NCBI GenBank assembly: GCA_000091205.1
Contig: AP006485.2
Direction: 5' to 3' (one strand)
Origin: Cyanidioschyzon merolae
Lineage: Eukaryota
DNA: 64,000 bases
Below the pieces are notes generated by a model. That model was not told where the DNA came from and did no database searches. It saw nothing but the letters and a program-made list of their open reading frames with translations. Positions 1 to 51,921 of this stretch are shown here, one piece after another; position 1 is the first letter of the stretch; each line of letters starts with the position of its first letter. The position numbers were made by a program, and so were the translations under genes.

Positions 1-1096
1 TCAGAATGGACTTGTGCTCGACCAGCATCACTTGGCCATCGAAGGTCGTTGTCGCTTCAACGGGATCGTTCTCTGCACAGAGCACCTGGCCCGAATGAAT
101 ATCGTCTTCCTCGACGCCTTTCACAAGCAGCTTGACGTTGTCTCCGGGCTCAGCGAGCGGCACCTCCTCGGCATCCATTGTGATGCTCGTGACATGCACG
201 ACAAGTCGCGGTGGCATGAGCAGTAGCCGATCACCGCTGCGAATCGTACCGGCTTCGACTCGGCCTAGGATACAAACGCCCATATCTCGAAATCTGTCCA
301 CGACAGTCATGCGCACCGGCATATCCAGCGGCCGCGGTGGTAGTTTCAGTGCATCGAGCACTTGGAGCAGCGATCCGCCTTTGTACCATGCACACGTGCT
401 TGGATGAACCGGTTCGCGCAAATTCTCACCTGTGAAGCCGCTGACAGGTACCCAGCTGACCTCCTGCGGCCGATATCCAATCTGCTTCAGGAAGGGTGCC
501 AGTTTGTCGCATATCTCCCGAAAGCGCTCCTCGCTCCACTGCACGGTGGGTTCATCCATCTTGTTGATGACGACGATGAGTTGTCGCACACCAGCCGTTT
601 TTGCGAGCATAGCGTGCTCGCGGGTCTGTCCGCCTCGTTCGAAGCCGGCCTCGAACTCTCCCTTGCGGGCCGAAATCACCAGTATAGCCACATCAGCTTG
701 TCCGGTGCCTGAGATCATCGCCGGCACATAGGCCTTGTGGCCAGGCGCATCAATAATCGTGATATGTTTCGTTGCGGTTCGGAATGAAGCTACGCCATAA
801 TCCGTGGTTTTTCCTTTGCTTCGTTCCTGTTCGGTGAGATCGAGCGCCCAAGCGAACTTCCATGACTCGCGACCTTTGCTCTTCGCCTCCTTTTCGTATT
901 TCTCCAACGTGCGCTCGTCGAGGTTGCCAGTCAGGTAGAGCAGGTGGCCGCACAGTGTCGACTTGCCGGCGTCTACGTGTCCGATGAACACAATGTTCAA
1001 GTTTCGGACCCGTTCTGGTGACTCGGATCCTGGTCCTCTGCCGTTGTCGTCGAGGTGCAGCTCCTGCACACGCTCCGCAACTTGAGACGCTGCCAT
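1..1096 (-). CDS. eRF3/HBS1-family translational GTPase (EF-1alpha-like, closest to eRF3); 3' end runs off window
   Basis: Reverse-strand translation from ATG at 1096 reads MAASQVAERVQELHLDDNGRGPGSESPERVRNLNIVFIGHVDAGKSTLCGHLLYLTG...SWKFAWALDLTEQERSKGKT...IIDAPGHKAYVPAMISG...ISARKGEFEAGFERGGQTREHAMLAKTAGV...INKMD, open through position 1. G1/G3/G4 motifs and the GQTREHAMLAKTAGV block match eRF3/GSPT. Not in the ORF track because it has no downstream stop inside the window. Confidence 0.8.
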   Translation of the reverse strand, partial: MAASQVAERVQELHLDDNGRGPGSESPERVRNLNIVFIGHVDAGKSTLCGHLLYLTGNLDERTLEKYEKEAKSKGRESWKFAWALDLTEQERSKGKTTDYGVASFRTATKHITIIDAPGHKAYVPAMISGTGQADVAILVISARKGEFEAGFERGGQTREHAMLAKTAGVRQLIVVINKMDEPTVQWSEERFREICDKLAPFLKQIGYRPQEVSWVPVSGFTGENLREPVHPSTCAWYKGGSLLQVLDALKLPPRPLDMPVRMTVVDRFRDMGVCILGRVEAGTIRSGDRLLLMPPRLVVHVTSITMDAEEVPLAEPGDNVKLLVKGVEEDDIHSGQVLCAENDPVEATTTFDGQVMLVEHKSIL

Positions 1097-1708
1097 AGAT
1101 AGTGCCTTTGAACAAAGCTGCTCTAGTCGAACGGTCAAAATGAGAATCCCGAGCGCTATCCGTACGAGCGCTGCTCTGTGGTCCGACCACGTTCTCTTCC
1201 TTCGCTGCACGGAAGAGTGTCCGGGCACGACGCGAAGCGAGGAATGCTTAAACTTCTAAGCACGGAATTTTCGTCTATTGTAAATAGAAGAGTATTTTAT
1301 AGAGCTACAATTGCGATGTGTAGTCTGGGTTTGAACGCAAAAGCACCGCTCACAGGTGATGCCCTGAGCGAGCCAGCAAGCTCTGATGCGAGCGTCTTCT
1401 TGTTGCTCGGGTCCTCAAAGCCTTGTACTACACTAAGCGTACGTACCAAGCAGTTAGTTCTATACCTGGAGTTCCACAGCAGCGCGAAGCGCTAACAAGA
1501 CCCTGCCGGACAAGAAAGTCGCCTTAATAGGTCGCTGGACAAAGATTGTCGCCGTGGCGAGGCCGCGCGGGTACGCACTCCAACTCCCAACAAAAGCTTT
1601 TATGCCAGTCTCTGTTCAACGGCTGTGTTGCTGCGCTTAAGCCCTAACAGGGATCACTGACTCGTGATCCTGGGTAGACTCCGTTCAAGACGTACCTTGC
1701 CGTGGGGT

Positions 1709-3115
1709 ATGTTTGTGGGACTTCTCACAAGACGCAATCTACGACCCTTGCAGTCACTCGCCCGGAAACAAAGCCAGTTGGACACGTTTCGGAGCCGCAT
1801 GTCTTATTCGACTTTCTCTGGAGTGCCTGAGGCACCAAAGGACCCCATCTTAGGTCTGAATGAGCTTTTCCGTGAGGACCCTTCACCCCTTAAAGTAAAT
1901 CTGGGCGTCGGTGCGTACCGCACGGAAGAGAACAGGCCATACGTGCTCGGTGTTGTGAAACGAGTCGAACAAGAACTAGCAAATAATCCGAATACCCTGC
2001 ACGAGTATTTGCCGATCGAAGGCTTACCTGAATTTCGCTCCCTGTCAGCTCGCCTCGTATTTGGGGAGCGCTCACCGGCGCTCAAAGAGCAGCGAGTTGT
2101 CTCGCTACAAAGCCTGTCGGGAACAGGCTCGCTTCGCCTGGTCGCAGAGTTCCTCAGCAAGTTTTACCAGCGCGGCGCAGTCTGTTATCTGCCGCGCCCG
2201 ACCTGGGGGAACCACTGGAACATATTCCCAGCGGCGGGCATAAAGTGCCGCGAGTACCGGTATTACTCAGACGAGACCCATGAGGTCGACATCATCGGTC
2301 TCCTGGACGACCTAACTGCTGCACCGTCGGGCTCAATCGTGCTCCTTCACGCGTGTGCACATAATCCGACGGGAGCAGACCCTTCCATGACACAGTGGCA
2401 AGAGATCTTGGACGTCATCCGAAAGAAACAACATTTTCCGTTATTTGACTGCGCTTACCAAGGCTTCGCCTCGGGCTCTTTTGAGCGCGATGCGGCAGCT
2501 GTTCGCTTGTTTGAACGCGCTACAGTACCGGCTTCCGAAGCGGATGGTGCCAGAGAGCGACCCATGGAGATGGCGGTGACGCAGTCGTTTGCGAAAAATA
2601 TGGGACTTTACGGAGAGCGCGTCGGCGCAGCTCATATTGTCTGTGCTGCTCCGGCAGTAACGCAAGCCGTGCTCAGCCAAATGAAGCAGATAGCGCGCGG
2701 GCTCTATTCGAGTCCACCGGCACATGGTGCGACGATAGCAGCGAGAATTCTGAAAGATCGTGCGCTTTTTGCGGAATGGGAAACCGAAGTGCATGTGATG
2801 AGTAGTCGTATTCTACGCATGCGTCGTGAGCTCTTTGAGGCGCTGCATGAAAACAAAACGCCCGGAAATTGGGAGCATATTCTCTCCCAAATCGGCATGT
2901 TCAGTTTCCTGGGGCTGAGTGCGGAACAATGCCTTTATCTCCGGGAAAAGTACCATATATATATGACGACGAATGGGAGAATATCAATGGCCGGTCTCAC
3001 TTCAGACAAGGTACAGTACCTAGCGGATGCTATCAGGGATGCAGTCGTGCGTGAGGCCGAAAAGTTTGAGCATCAATCCGGCATTCAAGCTGCGCTAAAC
3101 AGCGGTAAGATATAA
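1709..3115 (+). CDS. aspartate aminotransferase (class I aminotransferase) with ~30-aa Arg-rich presequence
   Basis: Track ORF 1664..3115 starts at GTG; the first in-frame ATG is at 1709 (MFVGLLTRRNLRPLQSLARKQSQLDTFRSR), followed by MSYSTFSGVPEAPKDPILGLNELF...GVGAYRTEENRPYVL...SFAKNMGLYGERVGA, which are hallmark AAT blocks. Continuous ORF with no intron. An alternative start is the ATG at 1799 (cytosolic-type). Confidence 0.9.
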   Translation: MFVGLLTRRNLRPLQSLARKQSQLDTFRSRMSYSTFSGVPEAPKDPILGLNELFREDPSPLKVNLGVGAYRTEENRPYVLGVVKRVEQELANNPNTLHEYLPIEGLPEFRSLSARLVFGERSPALKEQRVVSLQSLSGTGSLRLVAEFLSKFYQRGAVCYLPRPTWGNHWNIFPAAGIKCREYRYYSDETHEVDIIGLLDDLTAAPSGSIVLLHACAHNPTGADPSMTQWQEILDVIRKKQHFPLFDCAYQGFASGSFERDAAAVRLFERATVPASEADGARERPMEMAVTQSFAKNMGLYGERVGAAHIVCAAPAVTQAVLSQMKQIARGLYSSPPAHGATIAARILKDRALFAEWETEVHVMSSRILRMRRELFEALHENKTPGNWEHILSQIGMFSFLGLSAEQCLYLREKYHIYMTTNGRISMAGLTSDKVQYLADAIRDAVVREAEKFEHQSGIQAALNSGKI

Positions 3116-4555
3116 GAGATAAATTTTGGCGGAGTACACACTGGTTTGGTGTTTTGCCACACGGCAACGGAACGAAGCACCGTTCCCGTCACGTCCAGCT
3201 AGACCGATCATCAGGTGCCGTGGAGCCATGATTCGTGAACGGATGCGTCGGTTTTGGTTGCCAGCGTCTACAGCAAAGGCGCGTAACGACGCGAGCGAGA
3301 GCGTCGACCCTGCATCCCGTGTGTGCACGGGACGTCGCGCGCATCTCAGGTGCCCTGTGGCAGCGAGTACCATGTAGTCAACCCCGAGGACTTGCTCCAT
3401 AGATCCTAGCCGGTAACGAATACTGCAGTTAGCGCCTTGCGTGGACCACAGCTCGCGTCTGGGAGAAAAAATCTTTCATGAAAGGTGGTCACAGAAACTA
3501 GACGCTGGTGAGCTTTCTGAATAGTCCACGCCTTTCTTTCATAGAATAGATGCTTCCAGAGAAGCGAATGACTTCTTTTGCTTGCATGCCACCAACAGAG
3601 TTCAATGGATTTTTCGTATGTTTGCAGTGAATCATTACCAACACCAGCGAAAGCACCGCGAGCATCACCATCATCACCCATATTGTAATTATCATCATCA
3701 TCATCATCACCATTAGCAGCAGCAGCAGCATGCACCTTCATTGCAACCAAGGGTGCCCATTGCCTCCAACAGAGCTGCCATTTCTTGCACAGCATGCGTG
3801 ACGCGCATGCGTGGCGGCGCAGCGCTGGCGGATCAGTTGCACGCATGCGATGCGCCATATCGTCGTCAGGGCCCTACATCTCCATCATGGACAAAAAGGT
3901 AAAGCGATACAGTCCAACACCTCCGTCAAGAACAAAAAAGAACGTAAGAATGTGCTGAGCGTTGATGGACGCTCGGTCCGATACCGATGACAATCACGAT
4001 ATCAGGGATCGATGGTCAATGGAAACCTTTTGACATCAGAAAAAAATTGCCTCATCGCCGATTGCGGTGTCGATCGACATCCACTTGTCTTTTTTTTCAA
4101 GATATATACATTTATGTCTAGATAGAAAGTGGCGTTCAGCGGCCGCGTAGCAGGGCGTGCACGCGCGCGCCGGCGCATCCACTCCCGTCGCAGCGATGCA
4201 TCGACGCTGCGGCGCGATGGACGGCATCGCTCGAGAAGCGTCAGTTAAGCGCCGGCTAAGTCCACTGGGCGCTCTGGACCTGAACGCTTCTATGGTCTTT
4301 GTGCCGATCACATCGGTTCAAGAGGCAAAGCATATTTTTCGTCATAGAAATAGCAGATCAACGAGTCAACTTTGTGCTTGTCGGTTCGCCTTGGCTCGGG
4401 CTTTCGTGTCTACGCAAGATAAAACGTGCTTTGTACCTGGTAGACCGTGTGTGCTCAAGGAAAAGTCAGCGCACACCGGCACTCTGAGACGCTCTCGGTT
4501 ACAGCGGGGGTTCTGTTGCGCTCAGGTCGAAGCAACAACGGTACATTCTGATTCG

Positions 4556-21700: not shown

Positions 21701-23448
21701 ATCTCTTCGTGATCAAACTCGTTTGCTCTGTATGCATCCGACGCCATTGTTTGCCGAGCCTCAGTCGCATCTTCCGCTAGCCAAGTGTCGTCGGCATTCT
21801 CCGAGTGCTGCGCAAGCTCTATCGCATCCCAACTGTCTATCGTTTGCATGGTAGCTTGCGCAACAGCAGCAGGATGCGCTCGATGGTGCGATGCTTGGAC
21901 CTGATCCCAGCCCCGATCCGCGTCATGAGGATGCAGCGTCACAGTAAGGGTGCTCTGCTGCTCTCGCGGATGCGGCAAGGAGTCTGAAGCGTCCAGCGGT
22001 GCTCGGTTACTCGCAACGGATTCGGCATCCAGTTCGTTGCGTGACAAAGTCCCGGAATATTCGTGCCCCCCTTGCCGAGGACTCGCTCGCGACTCACGAT
22101 CACGCATCGAATCCATACAGGGGCTCGTTTGTGCCGCTGACTGCACCTGTATAGTACTGCGATCACTTTGCACGCGAGGCAAATCCGGCGAATTCCAAGC
22201 ATCCTTATGTACAAGCGGCATGCTGTACGTACCCGTGCTTTTCTCTGCTGAGCTTCGAGATTCTTGTTCCGCTAGGGCTCGTTGCGGTGGAGACTTCATC
22301 GTCATCGAGGCTTGTGCGCATGCGGCATCGCATTCGTCTCCAATGGACAAGCCTGAATGATGCAAGGGTCCGCACGCGGTCTCGTGGGATGCCATGTGCC
22401 TCAACTGCGGTGATGAGGCACGCTTTTCGGGTCCCGTTAGGTAGCTTGATGAACGTGAGACATTCTGGATCTCGGATCGCGTGCGGCCTGGTTCAGCCTG
22501 GATCGACTCGCTTGCTTGTATTGTGTGAACCGGATTTTCAAGACTATCCGGAGCTCTCGGATACCTCGTCGGGTCTTGCAAGAGATCTCCGTCTCGAGGC
22601 GGATTCAAAACTCGTGTAGCAGGTGGATCCACCGGCCCGCCACTTGCTGCATCGTCCTCTCTGCGCTGCACGTTAGAGTCCTCGGGAGAACGCTCACCTC
22701 TTGTTCCCGATTCGCATTGCAGACGCTCCATGACCGTATGAATCCTTTCAACTACATGAGAGGATGGAGTTAGCGGTCTATCTGTATGCTGCTGCGCTCT
22801 CGCGAGTTGTCCAGCGGCCAGTGCGTTGCGCCCCATAGTTGTATTGTCTTCCGTCGCCGAAGTGGAAAGCGCTTCTACGTGAAAACCCTGCTCTATCCTT
22901 GTTGAAAGATTCTGCGACTCTTCACCAGACCATGATGGACTCATATACGGAGTAGAAGCTGATGCGGTACGGCTGTTAGCTTTGGAACGGAGCCTCCGTT
23001 CGTGCTCCTCTATGAGCCGCTGAGCCTCTGCACGCCTTTGGCGTATTCGCTCGAGAATGGCGGCTCCTCGAGCTGCCAGCGTCTCGCTCGACTCCACAGG
23101 CAAGCGCCCAACTTGGCTCTCTGTCAGCGTACTACTACTACTACTGGAAGCGAAACGCTCCAATGAGGCAGCTCGTCGAGCCGCTGCAATCTGCTCAGCA
23201 CGCCGCATAATAGCGACCGCGTGCGACTCGCGCTCTGTCCGCGCTTCTGGAGCTTCCCTGCCTGAGCTTCGGTGCCCCAGCTCCGAGTCAACGCCCATAG
23301 TTGCCGATGTCGCTACCGTCAGTACCGCTGATGCTCTTTCCTCAACAACAGGGCCACGATCAGTGGTTCTGTCCTGCGCAGGAGCAGGAGCACGCAGCCG
23401 CTGGGCCCCCAGACGAGAGCCTCGAGATTGCCGCGACGTCGTCGTCAT
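16489..23448 (-). CDS. giant (2319 aa) low-complexity protein with a Sec16-like central conserved (ACE1) domain; polyQ14 and polyD/E tracts
   Basis: ATG at 23448 verified. Central block ...VKQIERALLFGQYRTAIRLAQQANDWTLALLVSEAQAG... resembles the Sec16 CCD signature (human [29 protein letters not shown]; yeast ATGNHDDALRLALSKRDYAFALLLGS). The rest is S/A/P/T-rich disorder, as is usual for Sec16. Also contains a run of 14 Q, a DDDVNDDDDDDDDEEE tract, and a C-terminal ...NKFYYDDKLGRWV. Confidence 0.5.
18678..18716. repeat. (GCT)13 microsatellite encoding polyQ on the minus strand within the Sec16-like CDS
   Basis: Perfect gct x13 run; neighbouring (GTC)n at ~18936..18962 encodes polyD. Confidence 0.9.
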
Positions 23449-23646
23449 TCGTTTCTACAGTTGTGTTTCGAGCCCTCTCTGTTCACAACACCAAAATCAG
23501 TGGCCCTGGCACCGGAACACCGCGCAGTACCGAAGCGTTTCAGAATGTTATCGCCAAAGTCGTCGGTTCGCCTTGGCACGCGAATTCCCATGAACGCGCC
23601 GTCCAGCTTTTCAGCATAAACACACGTGACATGTTTGCGTCTCGAT

Positions 23647-24255
23647 GGGGATACACGCTGAGTTTCGCACTCCGGTATACCTAAAATAAGATTGCCTTTT
23701 TGTAGTGGTTTGCTTTTCTTACAGGGTTACACGCTGAGTTTCGCACTCCGGTATACCTGCAATAAGATTGCCTTTTTGTAGTGGTTTGCTTTCCTTACAG
23801 GGATACACGCTGAGTTTCGCACTCCGGTATACCTGCAATAAGATTGCCTTTTTGTAGTGGTTTGCTTTCCTTACAGGGATACACGCTGAGTTTCGCACTC
23901 CGGTATACCTGCAATAAGATTGCCTTTTTGTAGTGGTTTGCTTTCCTTACAGGGATACACGCTGAGTTTCGCACTCCGGTATACCTACAATAAGATTGCC
24001 TTTTTGTAGTGGTTTGCTTTCCTTACAGGGATACACGCTGAGTTTCGCACTCCGGTATACCTGGAATAAGATTGCCTTTTTGTAGTGGTTTGCTTTCCTT
24101 ACAGGGATACACGCTGAGTTTCGCACTCCGGTATACCTGCCATAAGATTGCCTTTTTGTAATGGTTTGCTTTCCTTACAGGGATACACGCTGAGTTTCGC
24201 ACTCCGGTATACCTGGAATAAGATTGCCTTTTTGTACTGGTTTGCTTTCCTTAAA
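23647..24255. repeat. 76-bp tandem array, ~8 units, 0.2-0.8 kb upstream of the Sec16-like start codon
   Basis: Unit gggatacacgctgagtttcgcactccggtatacctNNaataagattgcctttttgtagtggtttgctttccttaca is repeated head-to-tail 8 times. Variation is almost confined to one dinucleotide (aa/gc/gc/gc/ac/gg/gcc/gg) plus a few ends. Confidence 0.9.
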
Positions 24256-24963
24256 GTTGTTCAATGAAAATAGCGTATGATATGCATTCGGGAAAGGTCG
24301 GGAAAAGCGTTTTGTGACGGCAATGGTCGTGTGCGGAAAACGGTCGTACATAGGCAAGTCAGTTCCTACTTCTCCAGAAGGTGCATGAACCGCACTTGTC
24401 GATGTGCATCCATGATAGAACTTGTCGAAATCTATCAACACGAATACTCTTTTGATCACTCCAATTTAGTCCAAACGTTCCCCCAGAAATACGAGGAAAG
24501 AAGCTCCAGGATGTCAAGTGTTCATGCGGTTTAAAAGGTCGGTGCTGAAGCGACTCGGATGGACGGAACAAGAGATCGCTTTCCTTCCACCGTTGAATAT
24601 ACACAATCGATTTCGTAGTGAAACGCGAATACTTTTGACAGAAAGCACAGGTAATCGTCTGATTTGATGATTCTTAATTCGACATGAATTTAGAGACCTG
24701 TACATGGCTGCTCAAAGCGGCGTTAACCATATTTCAAAGGCAAGCAACGAGTGATCATGGTGACAACATGACCCTAAATGGTAATGCAGCCGCGCGGTCC
24801 ATGAAGTATCACGAAAAAAAGCACAGGATGATTTACCATCTTATCATTCGTCGAAGCGCACTTTGAGTCTTGTCCTTGTCATGTGTTATGCTCCTGCTCT
24901 TACAGAGCGCCACTTTTTATCTTACAGAAATGGTCGAGGAGTCCTCCTCTAGGATTGGCGTTT

Positions 24964-25646
24964 TCTACGCTCCCTTCGTGCGAAACGGTGACGCACACCC
25001 TACTGGAATCGATCGCTCGGATGACTCCAGTTCTAGTACCGAATCCTTTCCCAAGCAAACAGAAGAGGCGGGAGCCCCGCAAGCAGCGCACCACATCATA
25101 CGGTACCCTGCTGCTCTGGAATGCCGTCTCGCCGATGAGCGCGAAGAGACAAGCATTTGTCTTTCGAATGCAATGGACCATTCGAAGCGACAAGTGACGT
25201 GAGCAATGGTCATGAGTTTGTGAACGAGTCGTCCATGGACGACGTCAAGGTTCTGGTATTGCTGGATAATCTAGGGACACAAATCGCTTCGCCCCTAGGG
25301 TGCCGTGAGAGAGCAACACTGAAGCGTTGAAGAGTGCACGATTAACGCGTGCTTCACGTACGGAGCTTTAAAGCGTGGGAGCTTGAACCAGTGACTCGGA
25401 TCATTATATCGAATATTCTACGAATCTTTATTCGATTGCGTCGTGAATCCCCCCGATCCCTGTAACGTAACAAATTCCAGCGGTACAGCGTCAAAGGAGG
25501 CATTCCGCGAAAAAATGGCGACCGATCGACAGCAAACTACTCATGAATCTACACGCTCCTGCCTGCTGCATTTCGCATGTCGAGACTGCGGAACTGCAAG
25601 TTCGGATAAATGGAAAAACAGGAACATAGAAAGCAGTAAAGCACTG
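24964..25646 (+). repeat. dispersed repeat family A, copy 2 (truncated at both ends relative to copy 1)
   Basis: Aligns to copy 1 positions 10931..11613 (683 bp) with a few substitutions. Confidence 0.8.
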
Positions 25647-25792
25647 TATGTGAATCTCACCCGTCTCTTTATCACAAGCTCTCAGAATCGGACTCGGTGA
25701 CGTGTCGTGCGGTCCTGTCAGTGACAATCCTGTACCGTCGCTGTCGTCCTCGTCGAGCGACTCCGGTTACGCACCAGGCTTCCTCTGTTCAT

Positions 25793-26998
25793 CTACGCAC
25801 ATATTCCATCGGTAAAGGTCGTTCCTTCAGGGCAGATGCACGTGTCTGTGCCACAAGTCGCCTCAGGCGGGCAGCACAGCAGGCGCTCGAAGCCGTACCA
25901 GAGCGGGGTCGAGAGCTTGCCGCAGTTCTGGTAGCCAGCACGGCAGGCGCAGTTCGTGTTGCTCGGAAGCGTCGTTGGTAGCGGCGTCGCTTCCCAGCTC
26001 TGCCACTGCTTGTTCTTGTTCTGTTGTACCTGCAGCTGAGCCTGGCGGATTGACAACACGCACGTCTGGGTCGGATCACAGCACTCCTGGCCACAGACAG
26101 TCTGGTTGGCGCTCGGGCAGGAGAGCATCGGCTGCTTGTAGTAGCACCATGGGATCTGGCTCAGGGCCTGTGAATCGGCACCCTGGTACGGGTAGATTGG
26201 CTCGAAGCAGCAGCCGCGTTGGAAGCACTCGTGCGACGAGATGCCCGGGAAGCCACAGTTCTGCCGCTCATTCGCATCCACGTAGCACGTTCCGAGCGGC
26301 TCGTAGCATATACCGTTCTGGTTATTCTGATGCTGCTGTTGCAGTTGCGAGGACCAATAGTAATTGGAGTCGAAGCAGCAACCATGGGCAACGCATTCCG
26401 ATTCAGTGACTTGCTGCCTGTTGCCCAGAGCTGCGCAGGGCAGTTGAATGGTGACGTTACAGTTCGGTTGCGGGTACTGCGGCTGATAGACGGGCTCCTG
26501 TCCGGGTTTGTAATAGCAGAAGGGCGCGTACTCGCCGGCTTGCGGCGGCAACCAGCAGCAGCCGTACGATGTACACTCTTGTGGGGTTATTCCAGGCCAA
26601 CCGCAAGCACTGCGGTTCTGAGGCGCCACATCGCAGCTCGGAGCTGGCGTCGGCAACAAGCAGGTGTAGCCGTTCCAGCAGCAACCATACTGAAGACACT
26701 GATCCTGGTTGAGGTTCACACCGCAGATTTCCACCGTATCACACTGCTGTTGCTGGTTGTTCTGGTTCTGGTACTGCTGCTGTTGTGTGAAGATTTGCTG
26801 CTGCTGCTGCTGTTGCTGCGGCTGCTGCTGAATGATGACTTGCTGCTGTTGCTGCGGCTGCAGTTGTTCACCATAGGTGCGCGCCAGCGTCGGCAAGGCC
26901 ACTACCGTCGTGACGGTTCCGCTACCAGCAAACAGGGCTGCCACCGCTGCTGCGAGTAACGTTACCAACAGAATAAATGAGAGGCGGCTGCGTTGCAT
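25793..26998 (-). CDS. secreted Cys-rich protein with 3-4 trefoil (P-type) domains and a Q-rich linker
   Basis: Track start 27007 is TTG; the ATG at 26998 gives MQRSRLSFILLVTLLAAAVAALFAG (signal-peptide-like). After this come Q-rich repeats (QQQQQVIIQQQPQQQQQQQQ). The trefoil units include CDVAPQNRSACGWPGITPQECTSYGCCWLPPQAGEYAPFCYY and RQNCGFPGISSHECFQRGCCFEPIY...PWCYY. Both fit the P-domain consensus R-x-[DN]-C-G-[FY]-P-G-I-[TS]-x2-[EQ]-C-x3-G-C-C-[FW]-x(5-20)-W-C-[FY]. Two further partial matches are present. Confidence 0.65.
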   Translation of the reverse strand: MQRSRLSFILLVTLLAAAVAALFAGSGTVTTVVALPTLARTYGEQLQPQQQQQVIIQQQPQQQQQQQQIFTQQQQYQNQNNQQQQCDTVEICGVNLNQDQCLQYGCCWNGYTCLLPTPAPSCDVAPQNRSACGWPGITPQECTSYGCCWLPPQAGEYAPFCYYKPGQEPVYQPQYPQPNCNVTIQLPCAALGNRQQVTESECVAHGCCFDSNYYWSSQLQQQHQNNQNGICYEPLGTCYVDANERQNCGFPGISSHECFQRGCCFEPIYPYQGADSQALSQIPWCYYKQPMLSCPSANQTVCGQECCDPTQTCVLSIRQAQLQVQQNKNKQWQSWEATPLPTTLPSNTNCACRAGYQNCGKLSTPLWYGFERLLCCPPEATCGTDTCICPEGTTFTDGICA

Positions 26999-46750: not shown

Positions 46751-48115
46751 TCATGGATGAATAGTATCTTTGAATTCAAAGAACGAGTCATGCATGCGAA
46801 TGAAAGAGTACTCCTCGCATGACCCACAACACCAGTATAAATTAGGTTCTTTGTGAAAGATAGCGAACCCGGCGTGCATAAAACCTCGGAAAAACTCATC
46901 CAATTCTGGGATAGAGGCGAAACCCGCGTGCACTTCGATAAGGACTTGATTCACGTGCCGCAGCGCGTGCCAGGTTCTCAAGGCATATTGCTCTTCAGAG
47001 CTGAGTTCACGTTGGCTCCGTCCTTGGCGAAGGAGCTTGTCGGCTGCCCGGAACGCTCCCAAGAAAGAGGTGAACTCACCACCCTCGATATCGATCTTGA
47101 GCACCTCGACGACGTTTGGCAGCTCCAGGTGACCCAATCCAGACATGATCTCCGCCAGCGAATTGTTGCTCTCAGCCGGGCCAAGCGGCCGGCGAAAAAA
47201 ACGAACGCGTTCCAGAAAGCTCTCGGAGTGCATCGCAGATGGTGGCGATGATGTTGGGTCAAAGACGAAAAAATCGCAGTCCGGCAAGCGTTCATGAAGC
47301 TTCGTTTCGAAACTGAAATCGTCGTTGCTACCAAAACTGTAAACAATGCAGCGATACGGGAGCCTGAGCTGCTCACGAAACAGCCGTCCCCGGTTCAGGA
47401 TAGCAGGTGGGTCGCACACCCATTTGCCACCGTCTCCGTTGTTACCGATCCGTTCCTCTAAGGTACAGCCGATATCCGGTTCCCAGTTATTGTAGAAAAA
47501 AACCGACGGGTTTGGTTCGAGGGTAACGGTCTGGCGCTTTCGCTGACGTTGTGACCGAATCCTCCGTTGGGCCCAGAGCGCGTCCGACTCGCACCAGAAG
47601 CCGAGCGACTCTTTCAGTGCTCGCGTGTCCTTCGAAGTCACTGGTAGGGTCCGGTCCCAAATCTCCGTCAGGGTTTTCGCGTTGCGCAAAGAGCTCCCAC
47701 GACGAAGAGCCCTCGACACGGAGCGAACGCAGCTGTCATCCACGGCGGGAAGATCCGCGCGCTGGACACCACTAGAGCGTCCGTTGAGAACACTAGTAGC
47801 GCGGTATATTACGATAAGAGCATAAATAAGAAAAGTCAAAGCCCCTGAAGCGATGCACGGTTTTCGCCACGTCATGCCGGCCACTGAAAACAAACGTCTT
47901 TCAAAAGAAAAACGTTGCCGCCAACGGTGTACAGTAGTGACGGGAAACGCGCCGTAAGCAAATCGTCTCCAGCTGAGGTGCAGACGCATCCCAGTCTTTT
48001 TCGACCGTCCACCTACTACGTCTTTCATTTTCTTCTCATATAATTCCACTTTGAGAGGTCGCCCCACAGGTTCTCTCGTGTCGAATCTGGAGGTCTTTTC
48101 TCCAGCACCGCACAT
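46751..48115 (-). CDS. type II membrane protein with an FkbM-family (Methyltransf_21) methyltransferase-like domain
   Basis: ATG at 48115 verified. TM ALTFLIYALIVIY. Motifs CIVYSFGSNDDFSFE (GxG-like), CDFFVFDPTSSP (FkbM ...afEPnp-like) and LKIDIEGGEF (FkbM lKiDvEGaE). Confidence 0.55.
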   Translation of the reverse strand: MCGAGEKTSRFDTREPVGRPLKVELYEKKMKDVVGGRSKKTGMRLHLSWRRFAYGAFPVTTVHRWRQRFSFERRLFSVAGMTWRKPCIASGALTFLIYALIVIYRATSVLNGRSSGVQRADLPAVDDSCVRSVSRALRRGSSLRNAKTLTEIWDRTLPVTSKDTRALKESLGFWCESDALWAQRRIRSQRQRKRQTVTLEPNPSVFFYNNWEPDIGCTLEERIGNNGDGGKWVCDPPAILNRGRLFREQLRLPYRCIVYSFGSNDDFSFETKLHERLPDCDFFVFDPTSSPPSAMHSESFLERVRFFRRPLGPAESNNSLAEIMSGLGHLELPNVVEVLKIDIEGGEFTSFLGAFRAADKLLRQGRSQRELSSEEQYALRTWHALRHVNQVLIEVHAGFASIPELDEFFRGFMHAGFAIFHKEPNLYWCCGSCEEYSFIRMHDSFFEFKDTIHP

Positions 48116-48119
48116 CTCC

Positions 48120-50300
48120 TGATATTGATAGCGACATTAAAGTCTCGGTTCACAAACTCCATGCGTTTCTTGCCATCTTTGGTTGTACTTACTAATACAA
48201 GTAGCCCACGAACGTTCGCCCTCCTTTCCATTTGCTCCTCCGTCAGCGGTCCGTACTTTGCTATTTCGTCGGGGCTCCTCTGGCACTTTTCCATCTCGAT
48301 CCTTTGAAGTGTACAACACAGTTCATGGTGTGTATACGATGTTCGGAACTCATCTACAGGTATTGTAACTAACCGGTCTGCACACCCCTTGTACGTTCTT
48401 GTCGTTGGAGCTGGTGTACACTCTTTTTCAGACGCCTAGCGCCCTGCTCCGTATGCTACTACCAGCCTTTGACTTTCATCCTCTTTGAAGGCACTCAGCT
48501 GATTGAAAAAGTTCGCGAACGCACACTGCTTGCCAACGTATAGATTCATACGCAATCGAGACCACCGGGGCTTTGTATACTCTTTCCACAGTGCCTCCCA
48601 ATGACCAACGCGAACTTTCATGAACTCCCGAAAAGCTTGAAAGTCGGCTCCGCGGCTCGTCACCTCGCCCAAAGCTTCCAGGTGCTCTTTCATTCCTGCA
48701 TTCCATGTCTCGATTTCCTTCCACGCATTCTTTATACCGGATTCTCGATAGTATCTCGCTCTCGAGAACCTCAAAAGACGCATGTCTTTCTGAATGAAGT
48801 TGCCGTCTGGACCATCTTCCGCACGCCTGGGTACAGCGATGGCTGTGACATTCGTATTCCCAGGGTCCGCGCCCACGACAAAGTCGTTATACTTCCTTTT
48901 CTGTGTGGCACAATCCGCCTCCTTCTCATCTTCATACCTCGTCACGTCAACGACAACGTCGTCATCCTGCACTTCCTGTGTCGCAGGATCCGTCTCTTTG
49001 TTTTCTTCATGCTTCGTCATGGGCGAAGCCGAAGGCTCGATAGGACGATACGCCCTCAAGCGCTTGCAGTCTACACAAATGGATACTCCATCGGTTTCGA
49101 TCATCCCCGTGAATACCCTCTGCTTGCTAATTTTGAGACGTTTGAAACTGAAGATATTCTTCCAGTACGTCTCCCGGTTTTCACCGGAGAATTCCTCCCT
49201 GCTGGCATTGAACTCGGGACTGATCTACTTCATGATGCCGTAGACGACTCTGGAGCCGATATAAACAAAATGGGGCTGTATGTTCCATAACGGGATGACG
49301 TAGAAGCGCTTCACCATTAGGAAAGCCCTCGGTCTCTCGCGCTCTTCATTTTTTCCTCACTCAGCTTCATCTCCGTCTTGCGTTCGAGTTTTCGGTCCAG
49401 AAACACGAAATACCGCAGAATGAGGCGATAGTGTCTTTCCATATCTTTTTTCAACTCTGGTACCTTTTCTGCTGGATTCGCCAGCCCAAAAACTGCATGG
49501 TGCTCTTGTATTGCCGCACGGATTACAGAAGCTTCATTCGTGCTCCTGCGTGGCGCCTTCTTGTCACCAAATTCGACCTCATCTTCATGCTTACGATCAT
49601 TCGTGATGCCTTGAAAATCGCACATTTTCCATCGCGAGATAGACCCGGGTAGAGTGCAAACACGGCGCGTATCATGAAACGTTCGAGGTTCACTGTCAAA
49701 TGGTGTTTCAGGTCCGTGATTTACTTCATCGCCCCGTATATGTAGATATTTCCGTCACCGCTGTATCGATTACCCTCGAAGGGGAATTCCACGAAGATTT
49801 CGTGGAGAGCATGCACTAGCTCATTTTCCCTCCGCATACCCCCTGTACCAAGCATCAGTTGACGAATAAACGTCTTGTCGAAAAACTCGTCCGAAACCTC
49901 GACTCTTTCCATGTGCGTCACATCGCGATGCATCGCCCTCACCAAATGCATTAGCCCTGACGATGCGTTTATAATACTTTTGGAGTACGAATCGACACAT
50001 GGTCTCTGATAGCGTCTCGCAAATTTTGCTTGTACTGATCCTTGGTATGTCAAAGAAGACCAGCTTTCACCACCATCTCGTCGCACAGGTGTCTTTTTCG
50101 CCGCCTTCGACGTTGGACCTCCCCTTTCGGTCCTTTTTCTTCTCTTCATTTTCTTCTGGACTCGGTACTGTTTTTTATTTTTTTCTGGCAGCCTGCGACA
50201 CTGGGCCTCCAGGATTATGTACTTGCTTTTTCATAACTTTGCTTTTTTAGTTTTTTTAAGAAGAAAGCCCTTTGAACGCTTCTGGTACACACTGCGAAAA
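48120..50300 (-). other. AT-rich island (~2.2 kb) with three co-oriented minus-strand ORFs of no clear homology
   Basis: Base composition is visibly lower in GC than the flanking sequence. ORFs 50149..49721, 49625..49317 and 49104..48436 lie head-to-tail on the minus strand. Confidence 0.5.
48436..49104 (-). CDS. ORF with a RuvC/YqgF/A22-type RNase-H-fold N-terminal motif (G-x-D-P-G-x-x-N...A)
   Basis: ...[21 protein letters not shown]... compared with E. coli RuvC MAIILGIDPGSRVTGYGVI. Downstream acidic catalytic residues could not be assigned by eye. The ORF ends ...LVVAYGAGR*. Confidence 0.3.
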
Positions 50301-51921
50301 AATTTGAGTAGACTTGTTTGAAGTTTGAAACACAAATGCAACCGAAAAACTGTACTTGGCTATGAACTCAACGAAAATACAACTTTTACATCAGAGCGAC
50401 ACGCTAGAGATCAAGATCACGTTTCCAGTCATCGTCGGCGATATGCGTCATGTCTCAAGCCTGTCTGATCTCCCAGCTGCGCTCGCTGTGCGCGATGCGT
50501 GCACCGCGCGAGACGCCTCACCGATCGATGAAGGACACGTGTCCGACACCCCGCCGTGGCACATGCGTGTTCGCATCGCACTGCAGCTGAAATAAAGTCT
50601 CGTAGATCGGAAACTCACGTGGAACGATCTCTTGCTATAGGCTATGTCGCTGATGCACATCGCAGTACGGACCTGACATACAAGGAGATGCAGGGGCCTG
50701 GCACGATTGCCCGCGATGCTTCTATCAAAGGCGTAGTCACTGTAGCACCTTACGCTTGTGCGAGTGAGGTATGCATCACCCTACTGAATAGGAGTTTCGT
50801 TCGTTTTATTGATCGTGAAAAAACTGTGTGCCGTAGTCTTCCCGACTACGGATATACGTTTATTCCCGTTTCTTGCAGTCCATTCCGCTCAGACGCTGGA
50901 ATGAGAAACTGGTTTGAATTGTGTTTCTATCCGGCGCCAGGCCAGCAAGTGTCGAGCAACCCACCGCAAATTCGTTCTGATCGATGGAATGTGCTTACGG
51001 CTCAATGATCCGAGAATTCACGACGAGTACCGACACCCGGGAAATCTGCCGCCATTGCGCACCAGCTCTGCGATTTCCACCAGTCACATCGCGTGCCTCA
51101 TCTCCGACATTCTGCTTTTCCGACGTTCCATTGTGCCCTGCGACTGCCGTGAGCGTTCGAAACAGCGCCCAAACCGCTGGATCGGGCGTAGCACAGAGAC
51201 CGACAGACATACCCCCTACTGGATTGGAGCCGGGAGCCATCGCTCACACGTAGCACTGCTCATTGCCGATCTCATCTGAATACTCCGTGACCACATTATA
51301 GTGATGGAAAGCGGCAACGTCTAAGGCCAGTGAAGAAGAACGTGCAACGAATAGGTCGCAAAACGTGATTCCCCGCAGCATGCGATGTTGGACGATTAGA
51401 CAATTCTCGGCGATGTATAAGTGACTACATAACCGAGTCGTAGCCAGGGCTAATAGTACCGACAGCCCCGCTGCTTTTTTTCTATGAACAGCAGTTTGCC
51501 CCCGTTTTGAATTATCCATATACAAATCTACCAAGTCTACCGAATAAAGTCTCATAAATTGAGACGGCAAAATGCCCCTGGTGGAAGAAACTTTCTCGTT
51601 GCAGTGCGAAATCGATCGTGCGCTGTTCAAGGTGCTGCAGCTACAAGTAGTAGCCTGCCATCTTCTTCGTTCACTCGTGTCGCTTCACCGCAATTTGTAT
51701 CAACCGTTCGAAAACCTCTCATCCAGCGGCTTCTTTGGAGGTACGTCATGGATATCATCCGGGCTGAAATACATGAAAGACGGGACGCTCATGTAGAGAG
51801 CTTTTGAAACTTGCTGTGGTCGGTGCAAGTCGTTCAAGGAACGGACTACGAGAGGGGTACCTCATACGTCTGCTGTCCGCACTATGTCTGGTCTGGACAA
51901 GTAAAGGCGTTTTGCTCCGAA

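Follow-up and report, generated by a model that had tools for sequence, protein, structure and literature searches.

What is the AT-rich island at positions 48120–50300 of the analysed stretch of Cyanidioschyzon merolae DNA (64,000 nucleotides of contig AP006485.2, hereafter referred to as the window), and do the short open reading frames (ORFs) found in it represent genes? An earlier note, made from the sequence alone, described three head-to-tail orphan ORFs, one of them bearing a RuvC-like G-x-D-P-G motif, and proposed a foreign or mobile insertion. The comparisons presented here indicate that the island is almost certainly one old, inactivated copy of CMe-1 (CMe-1A-type), a transposable element of C. 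merolae 10D, and that the ORFs are pieces of its decayed Fanzor1 gene.

Identity of the island and of its coding sequence

CMe-1A was described as a Fanzor1 element of C. merolae by Bao and Jurka (2013, Mobile DNA 4:12; PMC3627910). According to this paper, about 150 copies are present in the genome, each ~80% identical to the consensus and some still intact; the consensus is 3169 bp long (~3 kb), it has no terminal inverted repeats (TIRs), its target-site duplication (TSD) was not determined, and its 5' 635 bp are common to the short element TE-N2_CMe. The consensus was taken from Additional file 2 of the same paper, and the CMe-1 protein also from its supplements. A blastn comparison with the window revealed similarity over most of the consensus: nt 671–2193 correspond to 50470–48945 (83.1% identity over 1531 nt), and nt 2117–3169 correspond to 48946–47895 (87.2% over 1053 nt). 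The global alignment of the consensus and the window copy showed 85.5% identity over 2502 nt.

The block 50470–47895 is shared, at 77–83% identity, by 82 loci fetched from metagenomes, and altogether 334 relatives were detected in metagenome contigs, beside different genes. Like the ~150 copies published for C. merolae (PMC3627910), these relatives characterise a multi-copy transposable element. No other copies or fragments of the element were found within the window. At the locus itself, neither an inverted nor a direct repeat linking the element ends was found, so that the copy resembles CMe-1A in having no TIRs and no recognisable TSD. The mobile insertion envisaged in the earlier note is thus borne out by the alignment to the published consensus, and the additional copies it suggested looking for exist as members of a multi-copy family, while the flanking repeats and target-site duplications it likewise suggested were not found.

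Judging from the alignment to the CMe-1A frame, the three ORFs and a fourth, 89-aa one, missed in the earlier note, are fragments of a single degenerate Fanzor1 gene located on the minus strand at 50234–47954 (Table 1). The three minus-strand ORFs of 142, 102 and 222 aa were all present in the ORF list at these sizes, and the 222-aa ORF does contain the G-x-D-P-G motif, with the Asp codon at 48867–48865. Their interpretation as separate genes, however, has to be given up, the pieces being colinear with one consensus coding sequence (CDS). In the consensus frame of 734 codons, the ancestral ATG is located at 50234–50232, and the ancestral stop at 47956–47954 is now changed from TAG to TAC. Relative to this frame, the window copy carries five premature stops, five frameshifts (-1 at 50123, +2 at 50000, and -1 at 49610, 49354 and 48069), and in-frame insertions of +3 and, at 48965, of +75, the latter equal to one extra repeat unit. 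Given the five premature stops and five frameshifts, a Fanzor protein therefore cannot be made from the window copy. The ORFs of the earlier note, as well as the fourth one, are simply what a mechanical ORF finder yields between such lesions. The strongly basic ORF (MKRRKRTERGG...KAAKK) that had attracted attention has a similar explanation: the 142-aa ORF does start with MKRRKRTERGG, but its basic stretch is a translation artefact, because the first ~50 residues (50149–50000) are outside the ancestral reading frame.

The continuity of the ancestral protein is visible without the consensus as well. When the minus strand is translated in three frames, the reading of the 222-aa ORF goes on in frame beyond a single TAG, through VRGLLVLVSTT to EFVNRDFNVAINIRRC, and the motifs follow one another in the order RuvC-I Asp, RuvC-II Glu with Thr-Ser, and RuvC-III Arg-Asp, which is the classical TnpB/Fanzor order. 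The stitched 707-aa conceptual protein matched 45 proteins, all of them metagenomic, of up to 752 aa, with 51–76% identity and up to 98% query coverage. Homology with intact relatives is single and continuous across all ORFs, at 65–76% amino acid identity, and a tblastn search of the window with one intact relative (P0001) required five successive frames, -1/-3/-2/-1/-3. Introns were considered as a cause of the frame changes and rejected, since the indels are 1–2 nt long and the consensus is uninterrupted. Such decay is typical of the family of CMe-1 relatives: an open frame of at least 650 codons is retained in only 3 of the 82 fetched loci. Copies also differ in the number of units of the 75-bp tandem repeat, from 1 to ~5 in the relatives.

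Searching exhaustively with a profile of 16 sequences, we obtained 3028 clusters (50% identity) at E < 1e-3, including 392 at E < 1e-30. After this search of representatives, a profile was made from 68 diverse full-length relatives (alignment A5). Among PDB sequences it matched the Fanzor1 proteins of Parasitella parasitica (PpFz1, 9cf0; E 1.7e-23), Spizellomyces punctatus (SpuFz1, 8gkh; E 1.3e-15), and Guillardia theta (GtFz1, 9cer; E 2.5e-12), with the catalytic segments aligned, and beyond Fanzor1 proteins no match below E 0.4 was obtained. A shallow 12-sequence profile found no relative in the PDB. Pfam searches with the single ORFs, the stitched protein and the intact relatives gave no significant match, the copy of the database that was searched being without PF26935/DUF8286, which is the precomputed Pfam tag of the relatives; PF07282 (Cas12f1-like TNB domain) was matched by 16 of the 68 relatives.

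The fold was examined in an AlphaFold (AF2) model of P0001 built with a 76-sequence alignment (predicted local distance difference test, pLDDT, 80.3; predicted template modelling score, pTM, 0.77), in which disorder is confined to the acidic repeat region (residues 379–470, pLDDT < 50); a run with a 16-sequence alignment reached pLDDT 49 and was not used for the fold search. The top seven Foldseek matches in the PDB were all Fanzor1 (E 2.4e-15 to 1e-12, target-normalised template modelling score 0.52–0.70), followed by Cas12o at E 2e-3 and then by Cas12 variants, Fanzor2, Cas12f, and TnpB. No resolvases were present among the Pfam, PDB-sequence and Foldseek matches. As judged from the profiles and the modelled fold, the protein encoded by the CMe-1 core is a Fanzor1 with an RNase-H/RuvC fold. 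The structure check suggested in the earlier note thus yielded the expected RNase-H/RuvC fold, in an intact relative and with Fanzor1 proteins as top matches. Of the identities which that note had offered for the motif, the TnpB/Fanzor RuvC-I segment agrees with the profile, the fold and the consensus alignment, while a RuvC/YqgF/A22-type resolvase does not, considering the lack of resolvases among the fold matches and the 734-aa ancestral protein of Fanzor1 architecture.

All three codons of the RuvC catalytic triad survive in the window copy. In the 68 relatives the corresponding positions are invariant, namely the RuvC-I Asp (D420 in the numbering of relative P0044), the RuvC-II Glu (E591, in an E-F-R-T-S segment that is itself invariant), and R657, D658 and N660 of RuvC-III, where the N-R-D triplet does not vary either. 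In SpuFz1 the triad consists of D383, E541 and D606 (PMC11423790). The RuvC Asp, Glu and Asp of the clade formed by these relatives, as well as the window codons, follow the order and spacing of the motif that defines Fanzor1, D-X(125,275)-[TS][TS]-...-RD (PMC3627910). The clade has the fold, the domain order, the D/E/D triad and, behind the Glu, the [TS][TS] pair in common with SpuFz1 (8gkh, 9ceu-9cez), GtFz1 (9cer-9cet), and PpFz1 (9cf0-9cf3); in contrast to these proteins, the clade has an acidic tandem-repeat insertion before RuvC-I, and its activity and omega-RNA are predicted.

An intact element is a non-autonomous DNA element of ~2.5–3.2 kb without terminal inverted repeats, whose single gene encodes the 734-aa Fanzor1 protein. 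Homology with SpuFz1, GtFz1 and PpFz1 marks this protein as an endonuclease with a RuvC domain; transcription of the element's 3' end would provide it with an omega-RNA, and it would cut guide-matching DNA beside a short adjacent motif.

The low GC content of the island is the own composition of the CMe-1 element. The segment 48120–50300 has a GC content of 0.482, versus a mean of 0.548 (standard deviation 0.028) for segments of the same size, of which 1.1% are lower, and the whole repeat, 47882–50940, has 0.487, which is the lowest value among all 3059-bp segments. The GC profile changes from ~0.55–0.58 to 0.47–0.52 between ~47.8 and 50.4 kb. The drop reported earlier is therefore real, although moderate, but the background is ~55% rather than 57%, and the transition is gradual rather than abrupt. 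The repeat also exceeds the limits of the island, comprising the core at 50470–47895 and an extra repeated 5' segment up to ~50940.

Table 1. Positions of the CMe-1 copy, its parts and the adjacent host gene in the window
Feature	Position	Strand	Remarks
CMe-1 core	47895..50470	-	matches nt 671-3169 of the 3169-bp CMe-1A consensus
Repeated 5' segment ("class A head")	50471..50940	-	located where the consensus has its TE-N2_CMe-like first ~670 nt
Degenerate Fanzor1 CDS	47954..50234	-	734 codons in consensus; alignment to CMe-1A frame
142-aa ORF	49721-50149	-	ORF list
102-aa ORF	49317-49625	-	ORF list
222-aa ORF	48436-49104	-	ORF list; contains G-x-D-P-G motif
Fourth fragment, 89 aa	48025-48294	-	carries RuvC-III motif NRDFNVAINI
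Premature stop	50177	-	CGA->TAA
Premature stop	50052	-	GGA->TGA
Premature stop	49723	-	TAC->TAA
Premature stop	49227	-	GAG->TAG
Premature stop	48438	-	TGG->TAG, in conserved GAGRW
75-bp tandem repeat, 1.9 units	48875..49019	-	TRF; acidic 25-aa unit, between WED-like strands and RuvC-I
RuvC-I catalytic Asp codon GAC	48865..48867	-	in GADPGNTN; aligns with ViDPnkrDILYC of SpuFz1
RuvC-II catalytic Glu codon GAG	48349..48351	-	in VDEFRTS; aligns with LDEYKTSS (SpuFz1), IDEFRTSS (PpFz1)
RuvC-III catalytic Asp codon GAC	48142..48144	-	in NRDFNVAINI; aligns with WNRD of SpuFz1, PpFz1
3'-terminal module	47895..48010	-	best-conserved non-coding end, 37 non-redundant copies
GCGTCT..AGACG hairpin	47987-47964	-	within 3' module
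Conserved CACTACTGTACAC	47939-47927	-	within 3' module
Terminal 10-bp hairpin AACGTTTTTC-TTTT-GAAAGACGTT	47916-47893	-	intact in window copy
BAM79085.1, Methyltransf_22, 374 aa	46751..47875	-	exact-sequence look-up; Pfam PF13383 E 9e-33; host gene, not element

Departures at the 5' end, the zinc finger and the 3' end

Several observations weigh against the view that the locus is a regular CMe-1A copy coding for a typical RNA-guided Fanzor1, and they concern both ends of the element and one domain of the protein. At the 5' end, the window copy is without the first ~670 nt of the CMe-1A consensus, and another repeated segment is located there. No match of consensus nt 1–670 to this locus was found by blastn, and the 5' 635 bp that CMe-1A has in common with TE-N2_CMe are thus missing. 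The segment that takes their place was detected upstream of the core in about 10 other loci, with homology extending to ~50940. In the window and in loci such as L002, L021, L057, and L074, at least four different repeated heads, the TE-N2_CMe head being one of these, are attached to the core at one common point (consensus nt ~640–670); therefore, a single 5' terminus cannot be defined by comparison of copies. On the basis of these alignments, the most suitable name for the window copy is CMe-1 core with a non-A 5' region, rather than textbook CMe-1A. A palindrome, GCGCTCAGTGAGCGC, is located close to the start of the core; in the window copy it is degenerate. A separate weak match to CMe-1A nt 2–76, belonging to the TE-N2_CMe part, is located at 3963–4037 of the window (76% over 76 nt, E 2e-7) and may be a TE-N2_CMe fragment.

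The second departure concerns the C4 zinc finger (OrfB_Zn_ribbon/TNB) between the Glu and the last Asp, which was called strictly conserved in Fanzor1 (PMC3627910); the CCCC motif is conserved in SpuFz1 and ISDra2 TnpB (PMC10432273). The clade is 12–16% identical to SpuFz1, GtFz1 and PpFz1 and lacks the CxxC...CxxxxC zinc finger of their TNB/NUC domain. In the 68-member alignment (window region 48340–48150), the C1 position is occupied by H/Y/F/D, with Cys in 6 of 68 sequences, and C2 mostly by D/T, with Cys in 2; Cys is found at C3 in 45 sequences and at C4 in none. The window subclade has the sequence TSYTHHELGC...EKC...RGLLVLVSTT, and the CMe-1 subclade has TSYTHHELGC-x10-C ... RGLLALVSTT, i.e., H-H-x4-C-x10-C in place of C4. 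Since the C4 motif is absent, membership in Fanzor1 rests on homology and on the inclusion of CMe-1 by the paper that defined the group, not on this motif, and the biochemistry of the zinc-finger-less clade could differ from that of SpuFz1. No discussion of C4 loss in the CMe-1 clade was found in a non-exhaustive literature search.

In terms of sequence similarity, the CMe-1 copy is a member of a large Fanzor1 branch that is uncharacterised, comprising the 3028 clusters mentioned above and represented in Pfam by the DUF8286 tag only. Rare members of this branch keep intact reading frames of ~700 aa. One could tentatively hypothesise, with more doubt than confidence, that the branch is a zinc-finger-less, omega-RNA-guided variant of Fanzor1 with a remodelled TNB, for which decayed copies, the present one at 19 nt from the start codon of a host gene among them, could be a source of guide RNAs in trans.

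The 3' end of the element, unlike the 5' end, is well defined among copies. The terminal hairpin occurs in two sequence versions in the compared copies, either CGTTCGA-CTT-TCGAACG or the version present in the window (Table 1), and is followed by a short G/T-rich tail; the published consensus ends at window position 47895. The Fanzor omega-RNAs that have been characterised are produced from the end region of the transposon and may share sequence with the gene end (PMC10432273), and by analogy we infer that the 3' module is a candidate omega-RNA or right-end region. The computational results at the RNA level decide neither for nor against an omega-RNA: for 37 non-redundant copies, RNAalifold analysis of the last 315 nt at the 3' side yielded -3.5 kcal/mol without covariation, the Rfam search of the 3' region yielded no match, and the single-sequence fold of this region is only marginally more stable than shuffled sequences (z = -1.8). 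For CMe-1, we infer the omega-RNA and guided cleavage by homology only. The last ~130 nt, including the GCGTCT..AGACG hairpin, CACTACTGTACAC and the terminal hairpin, also end an unrelated, non-Fanzor repeat (L020, ~300–480; L067, ~1790–1970). A non-Fanzor repeat with the same ending fits a cis-acting or RNA-level function of the 3' module.

The related-strain locus and alternative explanations

The same locus of a related strain is present in the metagenome contig Ga0078972_1001951 (L023), which allowed us to compare two versions of the copy. They are 99% identical from 45061 to ~48600 and 92–97% identical up to ~49000; between ~49000 and 50470 the identity falls to ~78%, the ordinary divergence between copies, and further upstream the sequences are unrelated, L023 carrying a TE-N2_CMe-type head instead of the window head. 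The switch in identity coincides with the 75-bp tandem repeat at 48875–49019, and the only premature stop common to both versions is the one at 48438. This pattern suggests that different copies of the element underwent ectopic recombination or conversion in one of the lineages. The 99% identity of the 3' third is at the level of the neutral flanks and is thus due to recent common ancestry, not to constraint.

Besides an inactivated CMe-1 copy, one could consider a locus in which the gene is dead but which still works as a "ghost", either providing omega-RNA in trans or serving as the promoter or 5' untranslated region of the methyltransferase gene BAM79085.1. The 3' kilobase is the best preserved (87% identity to the consensus versus 83% for the rest), the terminal hairpin is intact, and loci consisting of an omega-RNA only have been mentioned for S. 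punctatus (PMC10432273). Moreover, the copy occupies the 5' flank of BAM79085.1, whose ATG at 47875 follows the element's 3' end (47895) after 19 nt, on the same strand. However, neither covariation nor an Rfam match nor a convincing fold z-score was obtained for the 3' region, as described above, and its preservation may reflect the recombinant history of the copy, so that we regard a surviving function of this kind as unlikely.

Far less probable is a functional intron-containing host gene, i.e., a domesticated Fanzor from whose transcript the stops and frame changes are spliced out. Its catalytic codons are intact, and its 3' third is nearly identical to that of the related-strain copy, but this identity equals that of the neutral flanks, and the five stops and five 1–2-nt indels are located inside conserved coding blocks. 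The alignment with the uninterrupted consensus CDS is base for base and leaves nothing over that might be taken for an intron; none of the protein-family matches came from NCBI, and no 10D protein is annotated here. The earlier note had regarded the lack of an RNase-H fold, together with a single-copy region conserved in syntenic position and spliced into an ordinary host gene, as arguments against its proposal; the copy is indeed single in the window and occupies the same position in the related strain, but the RuvC fold is present and the family is multi-copy.

The least credible explanation, with practically no chance of being correct, is that of three or four separate small foreign genes, one of them for a RuvC/YqgF/A22-type resolvase, acquired from a giant virus (nucleocytoplasmic large DNA viruses had been named) or an organelle, since, although the ORFs exist, none of them alone matches a Pfam family, GxDPG is similar to motif I of RuvC, and the GC content is low, the fragments are colinear with single 600–750-aa proteins and with one published consensus CDS, which therefore refutes it, the fold matches are Fanzor1, Cas12 and TnpB and include no resolvase, the island coincides with one nuclear element of ~150 genomic copies (PMC3627910), and the genes next to it are ordinary nuclear ones, none of them viral or organellar, with viral and organelle genomes not searched directly.

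Known systems, annotation and neighbouring genes

The object considered here as an inactivated CMe-1 copy is already described: the CMe-1 family has been known since 2013, together with its Fanzor1 protein and its high copy number in the genome, and work on the biochemistry and structures of Fanzor1 appeared in 2023–2024, which leaves little discovery value. CMe-1A comes from the same genome, has the same protein motifs and no TIRs, and its copies are ~80% identical to one another; the window copy differs from it in the absence of the first ~670 nt, in the other, 470-bp repeated segment, in one extra 75-bp unit, and in the five stops and five frameshifts. Bacterial TnpB (ISDra2, 8h1j), Cas12f and Fanzor2 (9b0l) have the RuvC core and the TNB region in common with the clade and gave weak fold matches (E 0.05–0.09); however, they are much smaller, are without the Fanzor1-type N-terminal REC expansion, and occur together with IS200/IS605 or IS607 transposases, of which there are none here. 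RuvC, YqgF, Ydc2 and poxvirus A22 have an RNase-H-like fold whose strand 1 ends with the first catalytic Asp, in a hydrophobic-G-x-D-x-G context, as here, but these are dimeric junction resolvases of ~150–250 aa and not of the 700-aa single-chain RNA-guided-nuclease type.

For annotation, the locus is to be masked as a CMe-1 pseudogene; the 142-, 102-, 222- and 89-aa ORFs, as well as a 454-aa read-through ORF, are not to be called genes, and the GC dip is not to be taken as viral or organellar transfer. The zinc-finger-less Fanzor1 clade could be of interest for studies of Fanzor diversity, and the difference between the two strains attributed to recombination of element copies could be of interest for studies of genome evolution in Cyanidiales.

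The 454-aa ORF (46751–48115, minus strand) is a read-through artefact, in which the tail of the element, after the -1 frameshift at 48069, reads into BAM79085.1 via the mutated stop (TAG->TAC). The same 454-aa version is given by prokaryote-style gene callers in metagenomes. The methyltransferase gene was also considered as possible cargo of the element and rejected, since other copies have unrelated neighbours.

Another stretch of the window, at ~23400–25800 between two long ORFs, is the only one equally AT-rich (GC ~0.47). Its ORFs are short, with none longer than 130 aa starting inside, and comparison of this stretch with the CMe-1 element revealed no similarity.

The genes surrounding the element are ordinary nuclear genes of C. 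merolae, and three ORFs of the window are identical to the C. merolae 10D proteins BAM79074, BAM79079, and BAM79081. A paralogue of the methyltransferase, BAM82952.1, is located on another C. merolae chromosome (1,282,939 bp) and is 97.9% identical to BAM79085.1 (8 differences in 374 aa), indicating that the duplication was recent.

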